This document shows positions 1-49,854 of a stretch of 64,000 bases of DNA, piece by piece. Origin of the DNA: a virus (taxonomy: Duplodnaviria > Heunggongvirae > Uroviricota > Caudoviricetes); IMG/VR virus record IMGVR_UViG_2939521961_000011; one strand, given 5' to 3'. A program made the translations under genes and the position numbers. Position 1 is the first letter of the stretch, and each line of letters starts with the position of its first letter. Below the pieces are notes generated by a model, which made no database searches, was not told where the DNA came from, and was given only the letters and a program-made list of their open reading frames with translations.

Positions 1-70
1 CGCCCGCTCTCCAGCTCAACGCCAATTGCACGACGCCCCAGCGCCATTGCTGCTTTGACGCTACGGACAT

Positions 71-99
71 AAAAAAGCCAGCCACTGGGGGAGGCTGGC
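71..99 (-). terminator. Rho-independent terminator downstream of prophage A Q
   Basis: Stem gccagcc/ggctggc with a 10-nt loop, followed by a T-run on the minus strand. Confidence 0.4.
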
Positions 100-281
100 G
101 AAACTCGTAGAGCAAAAGTGTTGTTACACTAACTTCGTCACAGGGTTATCCTGCAATACTCAAAATACACAATATTTACAAAACTAATAGTATACAAGGC
201 GATCTTTAAGATTTTGTTATTAATTGTGGTCGCACCTTCCTTTCTGTGTACTTTCCGTATAGCTCACAGGATTCTGGGTAC

Positions 282-306
282 AAAAAAACCCGCGCATCGG
301 CGGGTT
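282..306 (-). terminator. tR'-like terminator of the late leader transcript (prophage A)
   Basis: GC stem cccgc/gcggg followed by a T7 run on the minus strand, about 60 nt downstream of a promoter-like element. Confidence 0.5.
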
Positions 307-352
307 CTTAAATCTTATCAACGGTAGACATACAAAGCCCATCATTGGGAAA

Positions 353-381
353 ATCTTATCCATATTTTTTGAAAAATGCAA
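353..381 (-). promoter_or_regulatory. Candidate late promoter pR' immediately downstream of Q (prophage A)
   Basis: Minus strand reads TTGCAT, 17-bp spacer, TAAGAT; position matches lambdoid pR' between Q and tR'. Confidence 0.35.
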
Positions 382-412
382 GCATCATGTCGTCATCTTC
401 GGCGAAAACCAT

Positions 413-1165
413 TTATCTTGTCACCTTTCTCAATTGTATCTCTGCATATGCTTCTTCCTGCCAGCACTTTGTAACCAGTTTATCAATGACATCTGCATAT
501 CCTTTGTACCACTGATAATCCGTCAGGTCTGGTACCAGCTTCTGGACATGAAGCCGCGCCAGTGTGGTTGGTAAACTGCTAAACCGGTTTCCATTGCAAC
601 GCCCACAAACCTTATAAACAGGCGTGCCATGAAGCCGGGTTCTTTTTTCATCCAGGACAATACCTTTACCCTTGCACCCTCTGCATGCTGTGCTGACTTC
701 TCCCTTACCATGACAATGCTGACATAGTTCCTTCACCCACTCTTCCTTAATAACAGATTCCCCGCTTCTGGAGTGTTTCACCACCTCGCGCAATACATTA
801 TGAAATCCAGTACCAGCACAATGCTCACAGCGAGCCTTACTTGCCGCAGACCTGGAATAATCAGCAAAGGCAAAATTCACAAGGTAAGGAATGATCTGTA
901 GCCGGGTTTCTTCACTCAATTTATTCAATGTCGGGTTATCCAGTGCCATCGCGTAATTGAGCAGACCTTCAATCGCAAACTGAGGATCCTGAACACCAAC
1001 TTTTGCCAGGAATAAAGCAAACCCAAGCGGTGCTTTTGACTGCACCATCCCCTGCGCAGCCATCACATCCGTAATTGTTAAACCACCAGAGCCTGTCGCC
1101 GGTGCGTCATCGCTCAGTTTTGGAGATTTCGGGGAGTAATATTTCGGTAAGGCTTCAAGGTTCAT
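413..1165 (-). CDS. Q: Late-gene antitermination protein Q (zinc-finger type)
   Basis: N-terminus LPKYYSPKSP shared with the second Q at 46741..47562; CxxC-GxG zinc-finger repeats; sits upstream of pR'/tR'. Start taken at the internal ATG with a GGAG RBS. Confidence 0.8.
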   Translation of the reverse strand: MNLEALPKYYSPKSPKLSDDAPATGSGGLTITDVMAAQGMVQSKAPLGFALFLAKVGVQDPQFAIEGLLNYAMALDNPTLNKLSEETRLQIIPYLVNFAFADYSRSAASKARCEHCAGTGFHNVLREVVKHSRSGESVIKEEWVKELCQHCHGKGEVSTACRGCKGKGIVLDEKRTRLHGTPVYKVCGRCNGNRFSSLPTTLARLHVQKLVPDLTDYQWYKGYADVIDKLVTKCWQEEAYAEIQLRKVTR

Positions 1166-1178
1166 GCTCGTTCTCCAC

Positions 1179-2228
1179 TTACGCCAGTACGCCAATTGCC
1201 AGCGCACGATCGATAAAACGAAATATCAGCTCCAGCTGAGAGCCATACTTCTCTTCAAATGCCACGGTATCCGCATGAAGCTCGTTGTGATGCTCCCGAC
1301 ACAGCGGTAGCGTGAAAATATCGTGAGATTTTGTCCCCATTCCGCCCTGACCATGACCAATCAGGTGATGGGGATCGTCGGCTGGCTTACCACAACACGC
1401 ACACGGCTGTGTCTTTACCCAGCGTGTGTATTTCTCATTTACCCAGCGGCGACGTTTAGGTCGTTTCATGAAGGATTCCGGAGACTCCGGATCAACGGCA
1501 ATGCTGACCACCGTCTTTTCCTGTGGTGGGTTCTGTTGCTGGTGGGTGTGAGACGGTAGCGCAATATTTTTTGTGCGCTGCTTCAGTATGCTGGTGGCGG
1601 TCTGTTCTCCCGGTATGATGTCGCTTTCACGGTATACGGAGCGGATTTTTTCCGCACGCAACCCCAGCGAACGACGTAATACCGCTTCCGGTAGCGCGTC
1701 CGCCACCTGATTGCGGACCGCCCACCAGGATAATTCAGCCAGCGATAATTCCCGTTCCTGTATGCCATTCATTGCGTGGCGGATGACGTCAATCATCCAT
1801 GCTGACAGGTTTTGTTGAGCAAGTTGCTCGAGTGATTCTGATGTCTGGTCGCGCAGCTGGTTGTCACAGTGCCAGCACAACACCATCGCGCCGGTACCAT
1901 AACGGTGAATGACTGTTTCGCTGTGATGATAATCGCCGTGTGGCCACTGGCAGGATTTCACGTGACGTAATAACCAGTCAGACAGTGCACCTGCACCACC
2001 TGCTGCACGAATAACCCGCTCATCGCTGAAAAATGGCAGTAATGTTTTATCCTCTGCCAGCGGCTGGCGAACGGCAGGAACGACTCCGGACGGCAGACCG
2101 CGCATGTTTTTCGGTTCCGGCTCCACCAATATTCTGCCGTTATGGAATACTGACATTGATTCACGGCCTGGCTTAACGATAACCAGACCGAGTTCCGGTA
2201 CCAGAACAGGTCGAAGTAATACCCGCAC
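1179..2228 (-). CDS. DUF968-family protein with C-terminal HNH-like motif (YdfU-like)
   Basis: 349 aa; C-terminal CACCGKP..HHL..LCREHHNELH motif; paralog at 47946..49049; standard position next to Q. GTG start 1 nt after the upstream stop. Confidence 0.7.
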   Translation of the reverse strand: MRVLLRPVLVPELGLVIVKPGRESMSVFHNGRILVEPEPKNMRGLPSGVVPAVRQPLAEDKTLLPFFSDERVIRAAGGAGALSDWLLRHVKSCQWPHGDYHHSETVIHRYGTGAMVLCWHCDNQLRDQTSESLEQLAQQNLSAWMIDVIRHAMNGIQERELSLAELSWWAVRNQVADALPEAVLRRSLGLRAEKIRSVYRESDIIPGEQTATSILKQRTKNIALPSHTHQQQNPPQEKTVVSIAVDPESPESFMKRPKRRRWVNEKYTRWVKTQPCACCGKPADDPHHLIGHGQGGMGTKSHDIFTLPLCREHHNELHADTVAFEEKYGSQLELIFRFIDRALAIGVLA

Positions 2229-2229
2229 G

Positions 2230-2517
2230 TTACCTCCAGATGCGCTGCTGGAATGTGCGGGACGGACGCGGTGGGCGTTCGGAATAAGGGAGCCTGGCGG
2301 AGATTATCCAGTGACGACGATCGAAGCTGAGATCTTTCTGAAACTCGTAACCACGCCTGCGGTAACACTGGATCAGCCATTCGGCCTGTTCTTCAGTGCA
2401 TAGGGGATGCTGGAACCAGTCGGTTTTAAATACGTGCGAACACCGTCCTTGCCTACTGGCAAGGGCGGCAGAATTGTGCAATCTGCTATCGTGCGCCATC
2501 GGGATCTCCGGTGGCAC
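2230..2517 (-). CDS. Small Rem-like prophage protein, function unknown
   Basis: 95-aa ORF coupled to the DUF968 gene; paralog at 48997..49269 in the same position. Confidence 0.45.
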   Translation of the reverse strand: MPPEIPMAHDSRLHNSAALASRQGRCSHVFKTDWFQHPLCTEEQAEWLIQCYRRRGYEFQKDLSFDRRHWIISARLPYSERPPRPSRTFQQRIWR

Positions 2518-2552
2518 GGTGTTTCTCAGCGACGGTTCAAGTCAGCCTGATT

Positions 2553-2825
2553 TTATAGCTGCTTCTGAATATCATCAACAGGTAATCCTGCCAACTCTCT
2601 TACCTCAGAAAGAAGAGAAAGGCTTACAACAACCTCATTACTTCGCATAACAAAACCACATTGAAAAGAACCATCACTGTTTCTGTAAACAACAACCGGG
2701 CGCGTGCTCTCATAAAACCCCGGGATCAAACTGGCTGGGATTTTCACAACACCTCCTGACGTAAAGGAAATGAAATGCATTATCGCTTCTCTCGGACTAT
2801 AACCATGAAAAGAGACGCATTTCAC
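2553..2825 (-). CDS. Hypothetical small protein
   Basis: 90-aa ORF with GTG start and weak RBS, divergent from the higB-like gene; no recognisable motif. Confidence 0.3.
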   Translation of the reverse strand: MKCVSFHGYSPREAIMHFISFTSGGVVKIPASLIPGFYESTRPVVVYRNSDGSFQCGFVMRSNEVVVSLSLLSEVRELAGLPVDDIQKQL

Positions 2826-3003
2826 TCAGTAAATCTGAGGATTTTATGCGCAAGAACAATGACTTTTTCTGTCTGCCGTTTATACAATCTGAATTACGTC
2901 TGTTTTTTGAACACCGATAAATCAGCAAGCATTCTCAAATAAAGATTGCCTCCATAGTCCACATGGTGTAACACTATGTGTTATATAAAATGCAGAGGCA
3001 GGT

Positions 3004-3375
3004 ATGCGAATTTTCAAAAACGCCTGGTTTGAACGTTTCGCTCGAAAACATCGGATTTCCGATAAATCGCTGCGCAAAATCGTGGAGCAGGCCGATAAGG
3101 GGATCATATCCGCAAATTTGGGTAGTGGTGTCATTAAACAAAGATTAGCCCGAAGTGGTGGCGGAAAATCAGGCGGTTACCGGACAATAATTTTTTACCG
3201 CGTTGCAGAAAAAGCCTTTTTCATCTACGCATACGCAAAGAATGAACGAGAGAATATCACTGCTATAGAGGAAAATGCTTTTCGAAAAGCCGCTCCCCAT
3301 GTCCTCAATCTTACTGATGAACAGCTGGCACAATTGATTCAACAAGGCCAGTTCACGGAGGTACCCAATGAGTAA
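3004..3375 (+). CDS. RelE-superfamily toxin, HigB-2-like
   Basis: GGGKSGGYR and IIFY..AY.KNE motifs typical of HigB-2/RelE-like toxins; overlaps the downstream HTH gene by 8 nt (toxin-first order). Confidence 0.7.
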   Translation: MRIFKNAWFERFARKHRISDKSLRKIVEQADKGIISANLGSGVIKQRLARSGGGKSGGYRTIIFYRVAEKAFFIYAYAKNERENITAIEENAFRKAAPHVLNLTDEQLAQLIQQGQFTEVPNE

Positions 3376-3685
3376 AAATTACCGCAGTGATGCACTTGCA
3401 TCTGTACATGAAATGATGGAGTCACTCCATGATATCGGTGCAATCACAAAACAAACTATGCGCGAATTCGATGAAACTTGTCTTCAGCCTGCGCCGGTAA
3501 TGTCTCCGGAAAGGATCCGTGCACTGCGAGAACGAGAGCATCTGTCTCAACCTGTTTTTGCCAGATACCTCAACGTCAGTAAAAACCTGATATCAGACTG
3601 GGAACGAGGAGTGAAACGCCCGGGAGGTGCAGCTCTTCGGCTTCTTTCAGTTGTCGAGAAAAACGGGATCCAGGTAATATCCTGA
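3368..3685 (+). CDS. HTH antitoxin, HigA-2-like
   Basis: 105 aa with a C-terminal helix-turn-helix region (LSQPVFARYLNVSKNLISDWERG), coupled to the upstream toxin. Confidence 0.7.
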   Translation: MSKNYRSDALASVHEMMESLHDIGAITKQTMREFDETCLQPAPVMSPERIRALREREHLSQPVFARYLNVSKNLISDWERGVKRPGGAALRLLSVVEKNGIQVIS

Positions 3686-3787
3686 TATTCTAATACAACA
3701 AAACCCGCCGAAGCAGGTTAAGTGCGGGTGCGTTGAGGATGCCTGACACATCAGAGGTGGCGAGGGATTTCTCCCTCGCCAGGTCTC

Positions 3788-3943
3788 TTACTCCTCAGGT
3801 TCGTAAGCTGTGAAGACAGCGACCTCCGTCTGGCCGGTTCGGATTCGTACCTCGCAGAGGTCTTTCCTCGTTACCAGTGCCGTCACTATGACGGTTAAAC
3901 AGATGACAATCAGGGCGATTAACATCGCCTTTTGCTGCTTCAT
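3788..3943 (-). CDS. hok: Hok-family type I toxin (HokD/RelF-like)
   Basis: 51 aa MKQQKAMLIALIVICLTVIVTALVTRKDLCEVRIRTGQTEVAVFTAYEPEE, the canonical Hok sequence; AAGGAG RBS. Confidence 0.9.
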   Translation of the reverse strand: MKQQKAMLIALIVICLTVIVTALVTRKDLCEVRIRTGQTEVAVFTAYEPEE

Positions 3944-4170
3944 AGCCTGCTTCTCCTTGCCTTTCGGCACGTAAGAGGCTAACCTACATGTGCAAAGCAT
4001 GAAATTGGCCTCAGATTAATGTTAAGCGTCCTGCAAGACGCGTAATGTTAACTGGGGCTTTTCTCTGTCTGCCTTACGGCGGCATGCCCGAGGCAGACAG
4101 CCTCAAGCACCCGCAGCAATTCTACTTAACTCTTCTTTCCCCGCAAATCATTTTATCCCCGATGGTAATG
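3944..4170. promoter_or_regulatory. hok leader and presumed Sok antisense-RNA region
   Basis: Conserved with the region upstream of the second hok (50011..50220); Hok loci carry an antisense Sok RNA and leader fold-back elements here. Confidence 0.4.
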
Positions 4171-4214
4171 TTCTCCCGATATGGGAATTCCCATATCAAG
4201 GTTAACTCAATCGG

Positions 4215-4766
4215 TTAAAGCTCCATTAATTTTCCGGCCAGTTCATCTCGTGGCATTACCAGCCATCCGCGCGATTTAAGCAAAGCCAGGGCTTCTTCAA
4301 CCGTCACCAGCTGGCCAGGCGCATAACTTCGGATGAAGGCGGTTTTATCGTCACGGATCGCCAGGTGAAAATCGATATTCATTTTTCCCATAGCCCGCTC
4401 TTTCTCGTACTGGTTGAAGTAACTGTCTTCGAGTTTTTCGAATACTTCCCACGCCTGATCGGTTTCGAGCATTTTTGCATGACGGGCTGCTCCGCGTTCT
4501 GTCCAGAGGATGAGAGTGCGGGTTTTGGGAGAAATTTTCACCTCATTTTGCGACTCGTTTAAAACTAGTCGCAAATTTTTGAGCTCATCACCAACAGCTT
4601 TAAAGAAGTGTTTTCCCTCAATAAATCGAGATTTATTTTCATGGTGATTCTGCTGTATACGGATTGCTTCTGTTCCGTAAAGGCGGGCGAGTAACTCAGT
4701 TGTGATTACAGGAATCTGGTTATAAGTGACAGGGGAAAGGTTTTTGACAGTAACTTGAGTCGTCAT
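4215..4766 (-). CDS. Phage antirepressor / Rha-KilA-type regulatory protein
   Basis: 183 aa with the N-terminal ELLARLYG...FIEGKHFF pattern of phage antirepressors; absent from the equivalent place in prophage B. Confidence 0.6.
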   Translation of the reverse strand: MTTQVTVKNLSPVTYNQIPVITTELLARLYGTEAIRIQQNHHENKSRFIEGKHFFKAVGDELKNLRLVLNESQNEVKISPKTRTLILWTERGAARHAKMLETDQAWEVFEKLEDSYFNQYEKERAMGKMNIDFHLAIRDDKTAFIRSYAPGQLVTVEEALALLKSRGWLVMPRDELAGKLMEL

Positions 4767-5037
4767 GATAACGCCCTCTGGTTGATGAATTTAACTATCA
4801 CCACCTTCAGGTCTCAATCATCAGGTGGCGAGACGTACAGGGTTGAGACTACCGGATCAACCAACCGGCCAGCCTTTCGGCTGCCCCATACGCCTCACCA
4901 TAATTCAGATGTGCGTGCGCATACGACAATAAAAAACACGCTCGCGGCGTGTGTCTGTCGCGGTTGAATATCCGGGGTCTCAATCCCGACGGTCAACTCG
5001 ACCGTGCGGTGAATATAGCCCCGGATTAGTAATTACG

Positions 5038-5121
5038 TCAACCCCAGCGGCAAATCGAATAAACCACCAGCGCTACCGCCATTGCAACTCCTGCCGTTAC
5101 GAATGCCTCAGGCCAGGTCAT
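5038..5121 (-). CDS. Conserved 27-aa hydrophobic small protein (MTWPEAFVTAGVAMAVALVVYSICRWG)
   Basis: ATG overlaps the upstream stop (ATGA); GAGGA RBS; near-identical copy at 50221..50304 differing mainly by synonymous changes. Confidence 0.5.
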   Translation of the reverse strand: MTWPEAFVTAGVAMAVALVVYSICRWG

Positions 5122-5303
5122 CGTAAACTATCCTCAGCGCCAATCAGTCCGTTTCGCTTCAGGCAGTCCATCGCTTTATACGGTAATTTGGCTGACAGGC
5201 GAAAATCACCCTGCAGCATCAGGCTTATTCCCTTATCCCGGGCTTTCGCTCTGACCGCTGCCTCGCTACGACCAATCAGACTGCCGATACTTTCGACAGT
5301 CAT
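5118..5303 (-). CDS. Small HTH-like phage protein
   Basis: HTH-like segment IGSLIGRSEAAVRAKARDKGIS; longer paralog at 51734..52015; start chosen to avoid overlap with the upstream gene. Confidence 0.4.
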   Translation of the reverse strand: MTVESIGSLIGRSEAAVRAKARDKGISLMLQGDFRLSAKLPYKAMDCLKRNGLIGAEDSLR

Positions 5304-5362
5304 CGTTCCCGCGCACTGCCGGAGTATCAGAATTTCAGCCCGGCACCACGTCTTCCACCCAC

Positions 5363-6124
5363 TCACCGCTGCTGTTCTCTGGTGGCGGTAATATCCCGGA
5401 GAATATCCCGGCACTTGTTCAGCTCCCGCAGCGCGGCGCAGACTCGCTCCCACTTCTGAACCTGACCTTTTGCCCGGCGCAGCTCGCGGTTAGCCACATG
5501 CAGCGATGGTAAAATCAGCCCATCCGGATGCTTTCTGGTGAACGACGGCTGTGACTGCACTGTGACCGCCACACTTTCCGTTTTTATTTCTTCCTGTGTT
5601 TCCGCTTCCCGGACTGGTAACGCAACACATGCTGGCTGAGGAAAGGCTTTACCATCGGTTTCCGCTACGGATGCAGCTTCCGGCTCTGCCGGTAAATCAG
5701 CGCCCGGTATGCAGTAACGAAATTTACCGTTCTGATTTACGCGTGCCAGGCGCCCCGTTGCTGTTACGACCGCCAACGTGGAAGCAACCTTGCGAATGCT
5801 AACACCGAACTTATCCGCCAGTTCCTCACACGTTTTAGCCCCATCCTGACAGATAAACTCAATCATCATGTCCGCGGTAACTTTTTGTTCGACCTCCCCG
5901 GTCAGCACATCCGGTACTTCAGACTGTGCTGGCTGTTCTTCGGTTACCCCGGATTCACCTTCACCAGCCAGAAACCAGGTGTGACCCGTTTTATCAACAA
6001 CGCCATTTTTTTTGAGTTCCCACAGTTCGTTGAGAACTTCTTCACGGCTGATATCAAGCCGCGCCGCCAGTTCAACAGAATTGGCTTTACCCATCGTTTT
6101 CAGTGCATGCAATACGGTTTCCAT
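5363..6124 (-). CDS. DUF1627-like phage protein with N-terminal winged-helix
   Basis: 253 aa, acidic linker, conserved C-terminus; paralog at 52048..52809; lies directly downstream of the DnaC-like gene. Confidence 0.65.
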
Positions 6125-6153
6125 TAAAACTTCCTCCGGATAAAAATTACTTC

Positions 6154-6894
6154 TCAGTTCCTGTGCTGGCTGACGTTCGGACGCCAGCTCTCCCAGTTAA
6201 ACGTCACCCAGCGACCACCGTTCATGGACATGCGGTCCATCACCCGCTCGCCGAGAAGTGTATTCATCGCTGCATGGTTAAGATTTGTCAGCATCCCCAC
6301 ACTGAGTAACGATGCCGTTCTGCGGTCAACAATCTGATTCAGCGTGACCTGCTCATTACGCGTATCCCGTTGCATGCCAATTTCATCCAGTACCAGCAGG
6401 TCAACGCCACACAATCCCTGCAAAAATTTTTCGCCCGAGTTTTTGTTGTCGTAGCTGCCATGTAACGCCAGCATCACATCCGCCACTGTTATCACAATCA
6501 CACTGCGACCTTTCGCCAGAAGGTGGTTGCCAATAGCCGCCGCCAGGTGGTTTTTTCCTGTGCCAGGCCTGCCACTGAAAACAAAATTCGTACAGCCGCC
6601 TTCCAGCTCTGCCGCAATGGATTTCGCCTGACTCAGGGCATGGCGCTGACCATCGTTCTGCACCCGGTAGTTACCGAACGTACACTTCCGGTGAAGCGGC
6701 TGGATACCGGAGCGGTTAATGATTTTTTCAACCCGCGTCTGATGATTCAGACGATTAACCTCCTCGCTTCGCTTACGCCCTTCAGCAAGCTGCCATTCCC
6801 GCCACTCCGTCACCGTACGGTACGGAGGGATTGCATCCTGCGGCACAAATCTGCTGACTCTTGCCAGAACACCACCTGACGTAATGTTTTTCAT
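6154..6894 (-). CDS. Replication protein, DnaC-like helicase loader (IstB-type AAA+ ATPase)
   Basis: Walker [12 protein letters not shown] and Walker B LLVLDEIG; follows the O-like gene. Confidence 0.85.
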
Positions 6895-6900
6895 GATGCG

Positions 6901-7866
6901 CTACCCCCTGAAACCCGGCGGAATTTCGGTATCCGGTTCAGAAATATGATTCACGCAACGCTGCGCGGGACCACGCCACAGTCGAATAACCAGTTCATCC
7001 CATTTCTCACGGAGTTTTTCCGGGCTCTTGATGTTTTTTATCCAGAACGGATCCCGTTGTGCCCGGCTGAACATTTCGCAAATTTGTCTGTGACTTCTTC
7101 CATCCAGCATCCGCATTGTGCGCACGTCATTGGCCCACGCCGTCCAGTTGGGCTCTTTCGGTCGCGTGATCTCACCATCGTCACTGGCAGCCTGTTCGTA
7201 CAGGTTTACAACCCGCCCCCAGATCCACTGCGCACATGTCAAATCCTCCCGGGTTCCCCACTGGCGTTTTTTCACGCTGAACACAACTGCATCAGGATGG
7301 CGGGTTAAAAACGCCTGTTCAGCCGTCAACTCGTCCGGTTGCGAAGCGTCCGGACAAGAGAGTTTTTTATTCTCTGTTGTATTCTCTGTTGTATTCTCTG
7401 TAGGATCATCGGGCCATTTTGACCTGATGACATTGGGCCGTTTTGAACCAATGGAACGTTTCATTTTGACCTCTTCCATCGTGTCATTTTGACCTGATGG
7501 AGTGGCGCATTTTGACCCGATGGATTCGTTCACTTTGCCATCATCTAAAAGCGCGCTATCGTAGTTAATTGTGTAAAAATTAGTCATATCACGCTTCGAT
7601 TTATTGAGCTTTTCGCTACGCAAAAGCCCCAGCGCTTTCAGACTTGCAAACGCACGCTTTAACGTTGACTCTGACCAGAACGGAAACTGTTCCAGCCATT
7701 GTTCCGTTGTGTTGTAAATCCAGCGAACGCCATCACATTCCATGCCGGAACTGGTATCCCTCAACCAGTAATGCAGTTGCTGCAACACAATGGCTTCGTT
7801 TAAACCAATCTTCATCGCCAGCTGTGTGTTTATAACCAGCGGGCGTTCAGCAAAAAGAAGGCTCAT
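6901..7866 (-). CDS. Replication initiator O-like protein
   Basis: C-terminal domain shared with the second copy; iterons lie inside the ORF; TENTTENTTEN coding repeat. ORF-track start is GTG at 7908; first ATG at 7866. Confidence 0.8.
   Translation of the reverse strand: MSLLFAERPLVINTQLAMKIGLNEAIVLQQLHYWLRDTSSGMECDGVRWIYNTTEQWLEQFPFWSESTLKRAFASLKALGLLRSEKLNKSKRDMTNFYTINYDSALLDDGKVNESIGSKCATPSGQNDTMEEVKMKRSIGSKRPNVIRSKWPDDPTENTTENTTENKKLSCPDASQPDELTAEQAFLTRHPDAVVFSVKKRQWGTREDLTCAQWIWGRVVNLYEQAASDDGEITRPKEPNWTAWANDVRTMRMLDGRSHRQICEMFSRAQRDPFWIKNIKSPEKLREKWDELVIRLWRGPAQRCVNHISEPDTEIPPGFRG
7411..7525. repeat. Replication-origin iterons inside the O-like gene
   Basis: Five copies of CATTTTGACC(T/C)GATGG-like repeats spaced 23-24 bp, followed by an AT-rich stretch; lambda ori has the same layout inside O. 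Confidence 0.6.
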
Positions 7867-8368
7867 AATTCCATCCGGCTTTTTGTTGGTACTGGTGACG
7901 ATAGGCACGCTTGAAAGCGATTGCTTTTTCTATAAGCTCGTCTGTCTCACGTTCCACAACAGCTGGATCTGCAAAAAGCAGCCCGGACTCCACCACATCG
8001 CCATATTCTTTGTTTAACCCGGCAATCATGTACGTAATGCTTTTTCCGTCAGTAATTTCGCGGTACAACCTGAAATCACTAATCCGGATAGCCTCCATAA
8101 TTGCCGGAATCAGCGCCGTGAATTTTTCACGCTTATCCCTGGTGTCGATAGCCTTCCAGCGTTCGAATATCTTCACCCGGTTAACGCCCAGTGCCCGTTG
8201 ATCAACCTCGCCATCATTAAACGTGATGCGTTGAACATCGATGTTCGGGCGTTCTTTCAGAGCCCAGAATGCTTCCGTGATTAATATCGTCGCCTGTTCC
8301 TGTGTCATTCCTGGTCGGCACACCCAGGCATCCAGAGCCTCACAAACCTGTTCAGGGGTGATTTTCAT
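7847..8368 (-). CDS. YdaT-family regulatory protein (cII-position gene)
   Basis: 173 aa sharing the MKI...W...K.F.RW..DT.D...PAI...YREI pattern with the 141-aa copy at 54568..54993; sits between cro-like and O-like genes. Confidence 0.55.
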   Translation of the reverse strand: MKITPEQVCEALDAWVCRPGMTQEQATILITEAFWALKERPNIDVQRITFNDGEVDQRALGVNRVKIFERWKAIDTRDKREKFTALIPAIMEAIRISDFRLYREITDGKSITYMIAGLNKEYGDVVESGLLFADPAVVERETDELIEKAIAFKRAYRHQYQQKAGWNYEPSFC

Positions 8369-8582
8369 TGTTCAACCGCCCCGCCCGCTTTGCCTTACGA
8401 TATTCGTCATAAACTTTGGGGTCGTACTGAAGTTCCCCGCCGGATGCCTCTTGCAGGCGCATCGCGCGACCTTCAGGTACTAGCTCCCCTTTCCAGCTAT
8501 AAAGCGAAGCCAAACGAATACCAGCAGCTTGTGCAAGTTTTGTTTTTGAACCGAAATACAAAAGTGCGTCAGTTTTAAGCAT
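8352..8582 (-). CDS. dicC: Cro-like repressor, DicC-like
   Basis: 76 aa small HTH protein divergent from the repressor gene; sequence matches my recollection of Qin DicC. Confidence 0.75.
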   Translation of the reverse strand: MLKTDALLYFGSKTKLAQAAGIRLASLYSWKGELVPEGRAMRLQEASGGELQYDPKVYDEYRKAKRAGRLNNENHP

Positions 8583-8597
8583 TTAAAGCACCTTGAT

Positions 8598-8615
8598 TGT
8601 TAGCCATGACTAACA
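8598..8615. promoter_or_regulatory. Operator palindrome in the dicC/dicA divergent promoter region
   Basis: TGTTAGCCATGACTAACA inverted repeat; related half-sites TTAGTCATGGC recur at about 9111 and 9147. Confidence 0.5.
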
Positions 8616-8665
8616 AAATAGATGTTAACAAAAACATAGTCAATAAGATTTAGCATTAGCTAACT

Positions 8666-9073
8666 ATGGATACAAAAAATTTAACCATTGGCGAACGCAT
8701 TAGATATCGCCGAAAAAACCTCAAATACACCCAAAGGTCTCTTGCTAAAGTCCTGAAAATTTCTCACGTATCGGTTTCACAATGGGAGCGGGATGATAGC
8801 GAACCTACAGGAAAGAATCTTTTTGCCCTCAGCAAAGTACTGCAGTGCTCGCCAACATGGATTCTATTTGGCGATGAAGACAAGCAGCCATCACCACCTA
8901 TTGAGGAGCCAGTTGCTCTATCCCCCAAAGAACATGAGCTCCTTGAGCTTTTTAATGCATTGCCTGAATCAGAACAGGATGCTCAGCTCACCGAGATGCG
9001 CGCCCGAGTAAAAAATTTCAACAAACTCTTTGAAGAGTTATTAAAAGCCCGTCAACGAACAAACAAAAGATAA
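8666..9073 (+). CDS. dicA: Immunity repressor, DicA-like (HTH_XRE)
   Basis: 135 aa; HTH GERIRYRRKNLKYTQRSLAKVLKISHVSVSQWER; divergent from the cro-like gene with operators between. Confidence 0.85.
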   Translation: MDTKNLTIGERIRYRRKNLKYTQRSLAKVLKISHVSVSQWERDDSEPTGKNLFALSKVLQCSPTWILFGDEDKQPSPPIEEPVALSPKEHELLELFNALPESEQDAQLTEMRARVKNFNKLFEELLKARQRTNKR

Positions 9074-47945: not shown

Positions 47946-49049
47946 TTACCCGAGCACGCCGGTTGCAAAGGCGTGATCAAGAAAACGAAAAATTAAATCA
48001 ACCTGGGAACCATGCTTTTCTTCGAACGCCAGCGGATCCGCATGAAGCTCGTTGTGATGCTCCCGACACAGCGGTAGCGTGAAAATATCGTGGGATTTTG
48101 TTCCCATTCCACCCTGACCATGACCAATCAGATGATGAGGATCGTCCGCTGGCTTACCACAACACGCACACGGCTGTGTCTTTACCCAGCGTGTGTATTT
48201 CTCATTTACCCAGCGGCGACGTTTAGGTCGTTTCATGAAGGATTCCGGAGACTCCGGATCAACGGCAATGCTGACCACCGTCTTTTCCTGTGGTGGGTTC
48301 TGTTGCTGGTGGGTGTGAGGCGGTAGCGCAATATTTTTTGTGCGCTGCTTCAGTATGCTGGTGGCGGTCTGTTCTCCCGGTATGATGTCGCTTTCACGGT
48401 ATACGGAGCGGATTTTTTCCGCCGGTAATCCCAGAGAGCGACGCGATACTGCCTCAGGTAATGCGTCCACCACCTGATTGCAGACTGCCCACCAGGATAA
48501 TTCAGCCAGCGATAATTCCCGCTCCTGCGTGCCATTCATTACATGGCGTATGACGTCAATCATCCAGGCTGTCAGATTTTGTTGAGTAAGTTGCTCAAGT
48601 GATTCGGAGGTCTGGTCGCGCAGCTGGTTGTCGCAGTGCCAGCACAACACCATTGCGCCGGTACCATAACGGTGAATGACGGTTTCACTGTGGTGATAAT
48701 CACCGTGTGGCCACTGGCAGGATTTAACATGGCGCAGTAACCAGTCAGACAATGCGCCAGCGCCACCAGCAGCACGAATCACTCGTTCGTCGCTGAAAAA
48801 TGGCAGTAATGATTTATCTTCCGCCAGCGGCTGGCGAACAGCAGGAACCGCTCCAGATGGCAGCGCCCGCATGTTTTTCGGTTCCGGCTCCACCAGCACC
48901 CTGCCGCGATGAAAAACTGGCAATGATTCACGACCGGGCTTAAGGACCACCAGCCCGAGTTCCGGAACCAGAACAGGTCGAAGTAATACCCGCACATTAC
49001 CTCCAGACGCGCTGACGGTAGCAGGCATGTGTCCGTGGCAGATGTGCAC
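47946..49049 (-). CDS. DUF968-family protein with C-terminal HNH-like motif (YdfU-like)
   Basis: 367 aa, highly similar to 1179..2228 including CACCGKP..HHL..LCREHHNELH. Confidence 0.7.
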   Translation of the reverse strand: MHICHGHMPATVSASGGNVRVLLRPVLVPELGLVVLKPGRESLPVFHRGRVLVEPEPKNMRALPSGAVPAVRQPLAEDKSLLPFFSDERVIRAAGGAGALSDWLLRHVKSCQWPHGDYHHSETVIHRYGTGAMVLCWHCDNQLRDQTSESLEQLTQQNLTAWMIDVIRHVMNGTQERELSLAELSWWAVCNQVVDALPEAVSRRSLGLPAEKIRSVYRESDIIPGEQTATSILKQRTKNIALPPHTHQQQNPPQEKTVVSIAVDPESPESFMKRPKRRRWVNEKYTRWVKTQPCACCGKPADDPHHLIGHGQGGMGTKSHDIFTLPLCREHHNELHADPLAFEEKHGSQVDLIFRFLDHAFATGVLG

Positions 49050-49269
49050 GAACAGGAAGATATACAGAAACGGTCCAGGTCAGACGATCAGCGTTCAGAC
49101 TCCGCTCCACACGGACACCGCGACGCAGATACGCCTCTTGAAGCATATCTGCCTCATCGATCGTACAGAACAGATAGTGAAACCAGCCATACTGAGGCGC
49201 ACGAAAACGCCTCCCCTGCTTAATTTCCGGGTCGGCTTCAGAATTGTGGGATTTTATGTGTTGTGTCAT
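48997..49269 (-). CDS. Small Rem-like prophage protein
   Basis: 90 aa, paralog of 2230..2517 with the same C-terminus RQR(I/V)WR. Confidence 0.4.
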   Translation of the reverse strand: MTQHIKSHNSEADPEIKQGRRFRAPQYGWFHYLFCTIDEADMLQEAYLRRGVRVERSLNADRLTWTVSVYLPVRAHLPRTHACYRQRVWR

Positions 49270-49390
49270 CGGATTCTCCGGTGACAGCAGGTGTCAGTTG
49301 TTCAGGCTGACTGCGCGAATTGTAAGGCAATACGCCGGAATGTACAAACAGAAAACCCGTCAGTAAGACGGGCTTAACAAGCAGGGGCGG

Positions 49391-49735
49391 TTACTTTAAT
49401 AATTTCAGTGCCTTTACATCAACTTCAACACTGCTCAGGTCTTTATCAATTTCACCCTCAATTCTTACTTTGTCTTTCGGAGAAACATTCTGCCCGGCCC
49501 ATACGCTGTCATCAATATCCGTGACAATTGTCCCGCTATTGTCACGAAACTCATAACGTTCATCACCCACTTTTTTAACGATGCTCCCTTCAAGGATAAC
49601 CCATGCATCATCCTTCAGTTCTTTTGCCTGCGCTACTGTTGAACGCTCTGCTTCTGGCCCCTGGAAACCACCCTGCTGTGCAAAAGCGCCAAAAGACACA
49701 CCGGAAATAAGTGCTGCAATCAATACCTTTTTCAT
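49391..49735 (-). CDS. YgiW/YdeI (BOF) family periplasmic OB-fold protein
   Basis: Signal peptide MKKVLIAALISGVSFGAFAQ, then the QGGFQGP...ILEG...YEFRDNSG.I...ID...W pattern of the family. Confidence 0.65.
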   Translation of the reverse strand: MKKVLIAALISGVSFGAFAQQGGFQGPEAERSTVAQAKELKDDAWVILEGSIVKKVGDERYEFRDNSGTIVTDIDDSVWAGQNVSPKDKVRIEGEIDKDLSSVEVDVKALKLLK

Positions 49736-49854
49736 TCATAGTCCTCTTTCAGAGATGAACATTCAAACAGCATTTTCAGTATGGTAAAGCGCGGGTGCGT
49801 TGAGGATGCCTGACACATCAGAGGTGGCGGGAGATTACTCCCCCGCCTGGTCTC

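Follow-up and report, generated by a model that had tools for sequence, protein, structure and literature searches.

A prophage-borne HigB2/HigA2-type toxin-antitoxin cassette beside hok in Escherichia coli, with a candidate operator conserved across its family

What is the small two-gene pair that faces hok in a Qin-type prophage, does it form a working toxin-antitoxin module, and does the inverted repeat 5' of its first gene control it? The pair lies near one end of the window, a 64,000-nucleotide stretch of DNA (virus record IMGVR_UViG_2939521961_000011). RefSeq names the first protein "type II toxin-antitoxin system RelE/ParE family toxin" and the second "helix-turn-helix domain-containing protein", and a literature search by RefSeq accession and on HigB2 in E. 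coli prophages found no experimental study of the pair. A first-pass annotation made from the sequence alone had described it as a HigB2/HigA2-like pair, toxin first, with a possible autoregulatory operator. Sequence comparison leads us to think it very probable that the pair is a functional type II module of the HigB2/HigA2 kind (PF06296), carried as a self-contained prophage cassette of ~735 bp and working much as its relatives do. It is an ordinary, intact member of a well-known family, and its toxin is already named in RefSeq.

Positions 1-15436 of the window are 99.99% identical to the rspB-adjacent lambdoid prophage of E. coli O26:H11 strain 11368. Past 15436 the window diverges from strain 11368, and it contains a second lambdoid prophage whose Q-to-replication region lies at ~48-54 kb. 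The prophage that carries the pair is the counterpart of the cryptic prophage Qin of K-12: it occupies the same site, and Q, YdfU, hokD, DicC, DicA and DicB are common to both. The locus had been assigned to the nin region. This label suits its location, with the replication genes on one side and Q on the other; positions 1-7000 of the window, within this prophage, contain no canonical nin gene. The features on which the argument depends are these:

2539-3700: variable cassette slot in the hok 3' flank, the gap in homology to K-12 Qin
2553-2747, minus strand: small hypothetical ORF in the slot (RefSeq CDS)
~2963-3700: toxin-antitoxin module within the slot, ~735 bp
2994-2998, plus strand: Shine-Dalgarno-like AGAGG, 5 nt 5' of the toxin ATG, read from the sequence
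3004-3375, plus strand: toxin gene, 123 aa, PF06296, HigB2-type, RelE superfamily (RefSeq WP_001217944.1)
3357-3361, plus strand: GGAGG ribosome-binding motif of the antitoxin, 5-6 nt 5' of its start, read from the sequence
3368-3375, plus strand: 8-nt overlap of the two reading frames, ATGAGTAA, joining antitoxin start and toxin stop, read from the sequence
3368-3685, plus strand: antitoxin gene, 105 aa, with a ~45-aa N-terminal region and a C-terminal Xre-type HTH (RefSeq WP_000042395.1)
3702-3719, minus strand: hairpin of the hok mRNA terminator, 17 nt past the antitoxin stop, with a T-run on the minus strand only
3788-3943, minus strand: hok toxin gene, 51 aa, the convergent neighbour (Pfam HOK_GEF, PF01848, E 1.2e-23)
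3938-4112, minus strand: sok antisense and hok 5' regulatory region (Rfam RF01794, 117.3 bits against a threshold of 59 bits, E 1.5e-27)

Homology to K-12 Qin breaks off at 2539 and restarts at 3700, and the 1.16-kb slot between these points has a GC content of 40-45%, compared with 53-56% in the flanks. What fills the slot differs among prophages. The K-12 Qin counterpart is rem. In the second prophage of the window the equivalent slot, from the YdfU-like gene to hok (49014-49783), was said to hold a YgiW-like secreted protein, and we indeed found there a protein of 114 aa whose N-terminus resembles a signal peptide and which matches Pfam BOF, the family of YgiW, with E 1.8e-33. In O104:H4 prophages the order is a decayed copy of the pair, then a Fic/Doc gene, then hokD. 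Judged from these differing contents, the hok 3' flank is a slot for cassette exchange, often occupied by toxin systems.

The two open reading frames read from the sequence have the coordinates and the toxin-first order originally given, and the convergence with Hok/Sok was likewise confirmed, both systems falling within ~1.1 kb. The genes are arranged tail-to-tail, with 102 nt between the stop codons of the antitoxin and hok. The neighbouring hok/sok system is itself complete, since both the Hok peptide (PF01848) and the sok/5' regulatory region (RF01794) were matched. Within the pair, the GGAGG motif and the ATGAGTAA overlap suggest that translation of the antitoxin is coupled to that of the toxin. 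In most gammaproteobacterial loci the antitoxin match starts at the equivalent position (base 3368, with the toxin start at 3001).

The family of the toxin was assigned by profile search. The 123-aa protein matches PF06296 over the entire model (positions 1-120 of 120) with 161.3 bits and E 1.4e-47, where the curated cutoff is 27 bits, and this is its sole Pfam match; the proposed RelE-superfamily membership is thereby upheld. Gerdes (2025) treats PF06296 as a family of toxins called HigB2 in the RelE/ParE superfamily and describes its members as ribosome-dependent, mRNA-degrading and encoded toxin first (PMC11980606). Two characterized toxins fall into the same family: a 55-aa fragment of Vibrio cholerae HigB2 (VcHigB2) matches PF06296 above threshold (30 bits), and Coxiella burnetii ToxP matches it over its full length (165 bits). 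A search of NCBIfam returned no model matching the toxin. Among solved structures the only significant relative is HigB-2, with E 4e-4 from the single sequence and 1.1e-5 from a profile. An AlphaFold2 model built from a 38-sequence alignment has low confidence (mean pLDDT 62.4), and Foldseek placed HigB2 (5ja9_C) first among PDB entries for this model at a non-significant E of 0.38 (TM 0.28-0.32). For this reason the family placement is based on sequence profiles.

The catalytic residues of the family are present. Active-site residues of VcHigB2 are K49, R51, R64, Y82 and K84 (PMC5416850; PMC10098735), and all five align with residues of the window toxin (K45, R47, R60, Y77 and K79, respectively). 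Across 38-39 homologues K45, R60 and K79 are invariant and R47 is nearly so. At position 77 most close relatives have F, and the window toxin and ToxP have Y.

HMM classification of the second protein also agreed with the original description. An Xre-type HTH (HTH_3) spans residues 50-94 (Pfam, E 1e-7), and the best solved relative is HigA-2 (E 6.7e-8), in an alignment confined to residues 45-99. The alignments span only these residues, and no similarity was detectable between the N-terminal part of the antitoxin and the disordered region of HigA2. This N-terminal region, ~45 aa long, is 61% conserved over 78 loci.

The most familiar toxin-antitoxin system at this site is relBE-hokD (relBEF) of K-12 Qin, which lies at the same rspB-adjacent site in the same type of prophage and is also a RelE-superfamily type II system adjoining hokD. 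K-12 hokD is 98% identical to the window over 3700-3957. The two systems differ in family and in placement. K-12 RelE belongs to PF05016 (PMC11980606), and its antitoxin comes first, with relB 5' of relE. In K-12, hokD is preceded on its own strand by relBE; at that place the window has the full sok region together with an ORF6N gene. The window pair is found on the opposite side of hok, downstream of it and convergent with it. Homology to K-12 ends at window position 3957, so that the sok region (3938-4112) has no counterpart in Qin. We rejected membership in RelBE on the strength of the toxin-first order, the Xre-HTH antitoxin, and a sole Pfam match to PF06296 rather than PF05016.

The inverted repeat proposed as an operator required comparison with other loci. 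The string originally noted, GTGTAACACTATGTGTTAT, is present once in the window, at 2966-2984. Its perfect arms comprise only TAACAC and GTGTTA, separated by a 3-nt spacer, and 31 repeats of this 6-N3-6 form are found in the 64 kb, so the repeat alone is not above chance and its significance depends on what is conserved elsewhere. Among E. coli alleles, homology starts at the repeat (window 2963-2967) and ends between 3673 and 3700. The 17 bases at 2967-2983 are identical in the O104:H4-type and PhiR12_3 alleles, and the conserved block continues beyond them with one mismatch; these alleles have unrelated sequence 5' of the dyad and a diverged ribosome-binding region 3' of it. Two further features can be listed:

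2967-2985, centre 2976: 19-bp dyad TGTAACACTATGTGTTATA, candidate antitoxin operator, which contains the repeat first noted (2966-2984)
2979-2987, plus strand: TG-extended -10-like element TGTTATATA, overlapping the right arm of the dyad and placed by analogy with the Coxiella PtoxP promoter

To describe the motif across the family we used 80 unrelated loci from species-representative genomes (Chromatiaceae, Halomonas, a cyanobacterium, many Sphingomonadales, Acidobacteria and others). A score based on the best 19-mer dyad within 100 nt 5' of a locus failed to distinguish upstream regions from controls and was dropped; in the window it picked another palindrome, ACATGGTGTAACACTATGT, at 2960-2978 (8 of 9 pairs). 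Because palindrome scoring failed in this way, we relied on a position matrix derived solely from these 80 loci, the window being left out. The matrix carries 22 bits of information and has the consensus TATAACACTAAGTGTGATA, with a core of T-A-AC N3 GT-T-A. The motif recurs 26-45 nt 5' of the aligned first codon of the toxin in these distant loci. It exceeds 15 bits 5' of 76 of the 80 toxins, and at 1 of 873,274 background positions taken from these loci. The window dyad scores 28.6 bits, and the runner-up site in the 64 kb scores 11.7 bits, which is within chance. The conserved positions are symmetric (T5/A19, A7/T17, A9/T15 and C10/G14): T5, A7, A9 and C10 of the left half-site are conserved at 84-94% and mirrored by G14, T15, T17 and A19. 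Over the same set of loci, the HTH segment SQPVFARYLNVSKNL(V/I)SDWERG of the antitoxin is nearly invariant.

The repeat could instead be a chance palindrome, a mere part of the -10 region, or a hairpin in the leader RNA. The shortness of the perfect arms (6 bp) and the number of similar repeats in the window are compatible with chance, and the right arm overlaps a -10-like sequence that would be conserved in any case. The left half-site, however, which falls outside the -10, is just as well conserved, and the motif is specific to its place 5' of the toxin. At positions 6/18 and 8/16 most pairings are non-complementary (A with G, T with G, C with A); together with the symmetric conservation, this fits a site recognized by a dimeric protein and not an RNA stem. 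Lacking base-pair covariation at symmetric positions, the hairpin reading was rejected. Moreover, the homologous toxP promoter of Coxiella is bound by AntitoxP, with or without ToxP, in gel-shift assays (PMC10098735). Taken as a whole, these non-operator readings are extremely unlikely. The role of the 19-bp dyad as antitoxin operator is strongly supported by the comparison of loci, binding itself being predicted from the Coxiella and Vibrio homologues. The original suggestion of an operator thus stands as to its place, while its extent is revised from 6-bp arms to a 19-bp dyad.

The promoter is less plainly marked. By inspection, no recognisable -35 element was found near the dyad (the sequence at 2959-2964 is CCACAT), and a simple sigma-70 scan called no promoter at the dyad. 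By analogy with the Coxiella promoter, we infer that TGTTATATA is the -10 of the toxin-antitoxin promoter. The scan did call a promoter at 2859-2888 (ATGACT-18-TACAAT); it lies outside the region shared between alleles and was not counted in the module.

Three experimentally studied systems bear on how the pair would work. HigB2/HigA2 of V. cholerae (VCA0468/0469; PDB 5JAA, 5JA8, 8A0X) has in common with the window pair the toxin family PF06296, the toxin-first order, and an antitoxin in which a C-terminal Xre-HTH follows an N-terminal region of ~40 aa. The resemblance in sequence is distant. Pairwise similarity between VcHigB2 and the window toxin is weak (E 4e-4, aligned residues 38-90), and VcHigB2 has 110 aa compared with 123 aa, the low-confidence model of the window toxin showing an extra C-terminal helix and strand. 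The host element of V. cholerae HigBA2 is a superintegron cassette, as opposed to a prophage cassette in the window. The footprinted operator of VcHigA2 is a single 19-bp inverted repeat that extends from the -35 over the -10 (PMC11006873). Its sequence, TGTACGC-N5-GCGTACA, compares with TGTAACA-CTATG-TGTTATA in the window, and the residues of VcHigA2 that contact bases, R68, E71, N72 and R77 (PMC11006873), are N, S, D and V in the window antitoxin.

Among the systems compared, the closest experimentally characterized relative is ToxP/AntitoxP (CBUA0028/CBUA0027) of the Coxiella burnetii plasmid QpH1. ToxP and AntitoxP are 41% and 44% identical to the window proteins, and the catalytic lysine has the same number, K79, in both toxins. 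Toxicity, rescue and inhibition of translation have all been demonstrated for ToxP/AntitoxP, and the ToxP variant K79E is non-toxic (PMC10098735). The Coxiella promoter PtoxP (TTGACA-N17-TATAGT) has a related CAC-N3-GTG dyad between its -35 and -10; its consensus -35 is absent from the E. coli cassette, and the outer positions of the dyad differ. ToxP/AntitoxP is plasmid-borne and required for plasmid maintenance, whereas the window pair resides in a prophage. HigB2/HigA2 of Acinetobacter baumannii plasmid pAB120 is likened to the window pair by name and by its toxin-first order, and its plasmid context differs. There the antitoxin represses the promoter with the toxin as co-repressor, HigB2 is an RNase, and the module stabilizes plasmids; the operator is left undefined in that paper (PMC5906591).

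The two genes are maintained together. Of the 80 distant loci, 78 have an antitoxin homologue after the toxin homologue, and the remaining two are cut by contig ends. A comparison of the window with the intact allele of Z1323CEC0019 (~83% DNA identity) gave dN/dS ratios of 0.046 (toxin) and 0.045 (antitoxin), with dS of 0.8-1.3, indicating purifying selection that constrains both genes as proteins. The pair is present in 217 of 5,426 complete E. coli genomes, in every case on the chromosome and nearly always as one copy, with 7 extra copies among the 217 carriers; it also occurs in 38 close phage-derived contigs. On plasmids, more distant members of the PF06296 family are common. Among deposited phage genomes a close copy was found in PhiR12_3 only, and its toxin is frameshifted.

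Sister alleles vary in the state of the toxin. In 14 of the 38 close phage-derived loci the toxin is broken and the antitoxin reading frame and dyad are intact, and the same is true of O104:H4 HUSEC2011, FORC_043, NMBU-W12E19 and PhiR12_3. The lesions are of differing kinds (frameshifts, a stop codon, an IS66 insertion). The frequency of such alleles indicates that the toxin is dispensable in some lineages. The antitoxins of HUSEC2011 and the window are 99% identical and differ at 24 nt, of which ~23 are synonymous (dN/dS 0.01). Compared across phyla, the antitoxin, with 61-70% identity, is better conserved than the toxin, with 50%. This is the reverse of the usual pattern.

These observations raise the question of whether selection acts on the antitoxin and its operator, with the window toxin a passenger that has not yet decayed. 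The antitoxin would then serve as a stand-alone repressor or protect against incoming elements that carry a cognate toxin. Retention of antitoxin and dyad beside broken toxins, the near absence of non-synonymous change relative to HUSEC2011 (~1 of 24 differences) and the greater conservation of the antitoxin across phyla all point in this direction. They must be set against a window toxin that is intact, with every catalytic residue in place, and against the dN/dS of intact toxin alleles, which reveals constraint on the protein. So few extra copies among the carrier genomes make a neutralising role within the genome unlikely, and the second-highest motif site in the window does not rise above chance. 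On balance this account is quite unlikely.

The preferred reading is a complete module with the following mechanism, the steps of which are drawn from the homologues. The cassette would be transcribed against the early-right operon of a Qin-type lambdoid prophage. The toxin is predicted to enter the ribosomal A site and cleave the mRNA being translated by means of K45, R47, R60, Y77 and K79. The antitoxin would neutralise it through the ~45-residue N-terminal region, dimerise through the C-terminal Xre-HTH, and bind the dyad at 2967-2985. Since the dyad overlaps the -10-like element, binding may repress the operon, whether by the antitoxin on its own or, more tightly, by antitoxin and toxin together. 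Where the two genes overlap, translational coupling probably leads to synthesis of the antitoxin.

The role of the module is the least supported part of this reading. Selfish stabilisation (addiction) of the prophage region is most likely, and exclusion of other phages is possible as a by-product. With the same molecular parts, the selected function might instead be defence, that is, abortive infection by a prophage cassette: an infecting phage would shut off host transcription or cause degradation of the antitoxin, the RNase would be freed, and translation would stop before the phage completes its cycle. The cassette has its own promoter region, opposite to the phage operon, as is usual for accessory genes expressed in lysogens; other toxin systems are nearby (hok/sok in the window, Fic/Doc and hok in O104:H4 prophages); and the cassette recurs in several different prophage backbones. 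However, a search of PADLOC-DB 2.0 found no defence model that matches the toxin, and a catalogued anti-phage defence system was rejected for that reason; the antitoxin gave generic HTH matches only (E 1e-5 or weaker). No report of a PF06296 member acting in defence was found in the literature, and the fact that sister alleles have often lost the toxin speaks against strong, general selection for killing. We regard defence as an unlikely selected function, and addiction is retained as the preferred role.

The placement of the cassette suggests a further scheme, which we consider decidedly unlikely: that the selected unit is the antitoxin-operator pair, together with a position that couples the module to prophage induction. 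The cassette runs antisense to the early-right transcript, which is antiterminated, and meets hok tail-to-tail; the plus strand has no terminator between the two. At induction, read-through from the phage promoter would silence synthesis of the antitoxin and free the RNase, much as HokW is freed in prophage Sp5 when sok is lost. Conversely, transcripts that read through from the toxin-antitoxin operon would be complementary to the 3' fold-back element of the hok mRNA. In alleles with a decayed toxin, the antitoxin that was kept would protect against related incoming elements.

On its own, one more pair of this kind is of little import, as work in Vibrio, Coxiella and Acinetobacter has already established the PF06296 family along with its enzymology and regulation. 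An intact E. coli prophage pair under purifying selection is nevertheless a convenient native-host model for the family. The analysis also yields an operator consensus that extends across the family, a 19-bp dyad matched to a nearly invariant recognition segment; this can aid annotation, since the antitoxin is not identified as such in RefSeq. The hok 3' flank appears as a slot for the exchange of cassettes and toxin systems in Qin-type and lambdoid prophages of Shiga-toxin-producing E. coli, and the repeated decay of the toxin with retention of the antitoxin provides a small natural experiment on what selection retains.

A disrupted toxin gene, together with an intact antitoxin gene and the dyad that is the candidate antitoxin operator (2967-2985), was found in 14 of the 38 close phage-derived loci. 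The loci with a broken toxin, some of them additional to those 14, are:

L004, 4040-4716, in HUSEC2011
L003, 4290-4973, in PhiR12_3
L006, L007 and L114-L127

The lesions differ among these sister alleles and comprise single and double frameshifts, a stop codon and an insertion of IS66. The antitoxin reading frame remains whole at 105-106 aa, with identity to the window antitoxin of up to 99%, and the dyad is kept. The dN/dS ratio of the antitoxin, calculated for the window and HUSEC2011, is 0.01. A 1-nt insertion occurs in some copies that are more than 99% identical to the window allele (E. coli genome copies H57, H59 and H61-H64; loci L117-L120), indicating that toxin loss has also taken place inside the window's own allele group. 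RefSeq annotates the toxin in these copies as two pieces.

Across phyla, the antitoxin is conserved more than the toxin. In the 80 distant loci from GTDB species representatives (L008-L087), mean identity is 61% for the N-terminal part of the antitoxin and 69.5% for its HTH part; the toxin averages 49.8%. In the same set the HTH recognition segment hardly varies, in step with the conserved operator.

A second palindrome, ACATGGTGT-A-ACACTATGT (2960-2978, 8 of 9 pairs), overlaps the dyad and has the dyad's left arm in common with it. This palindrome may be due to chance, since its left half lies in sequence that is absent from other alleles. More distant PF06296 pairs, namely phage-borne relatives with 35-48% identity (L141, L144, L158, L159 and L162), carry different palindromes, such as TATGCGCCATTGGCGCATA, at the equivalent upstream position; these palindromes resemble the V. 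cholerae operator in geometry. Operator sequence seems to vary with the antitoxin subfamily while the layout is retained.

No plus-strand terminator was detected past the antitoxin stop codon (3686-3800), and the T-run of the hok terminator hairpin is present on the minus strand only. Transcription of the toxin-antitoxin pair might thus continue into hok, in antisense to the 3' end of its mRNA.

The sok region is adjoined by a gene for an ORF6N-domain protein:

4215-4766, minus strand, anti-repressor-like protein (PHROG anti-repressor, E = 1e-77)

In PADLOC the same protein has weak matches to a candidate system, PDC-S05 (E about 1e-6). Of bases 1-24000, no more than 90% is covered by the closest complete genomes. 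The first prophage ends with its integrase, and directly past this end the window diverges from strain 11368; the sequence beyond this point (15436-60000) holds genes of a second lambdoid prophage, for tail, head and early functions. Because the integrase end of the first runs into the genes of the second, the two prophages seem to be arranged in tandem.

The hok/sok locus is complete in the window (sok region 3938-4112, compared with 5120-5873 of L089, the K-12 cryptic prophage Qin), whereas in Qin the homology ends just beyond the hokD start codon and relE-relB follows. Different RelE-superfamily systems therefore flank the same hok gene on opposite sides, in the classic relBE-hokD arrangement of K-12 and in the higBA2-like/hok arrangement of the window. 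The 3' flank of hok is occupied as follows:

window 2539-3700, HigBA2-like pair
window 49014-49783, BOF/YgiW gene, second prophage
L089 4626-5032, rem, K-12
L004 4001-5820, decayed HigBA2-like pair and Fic/Doc, O104:H4

This flank serves as a slot for cassette exchange, both in Qin-type and in lambdoid prophages.
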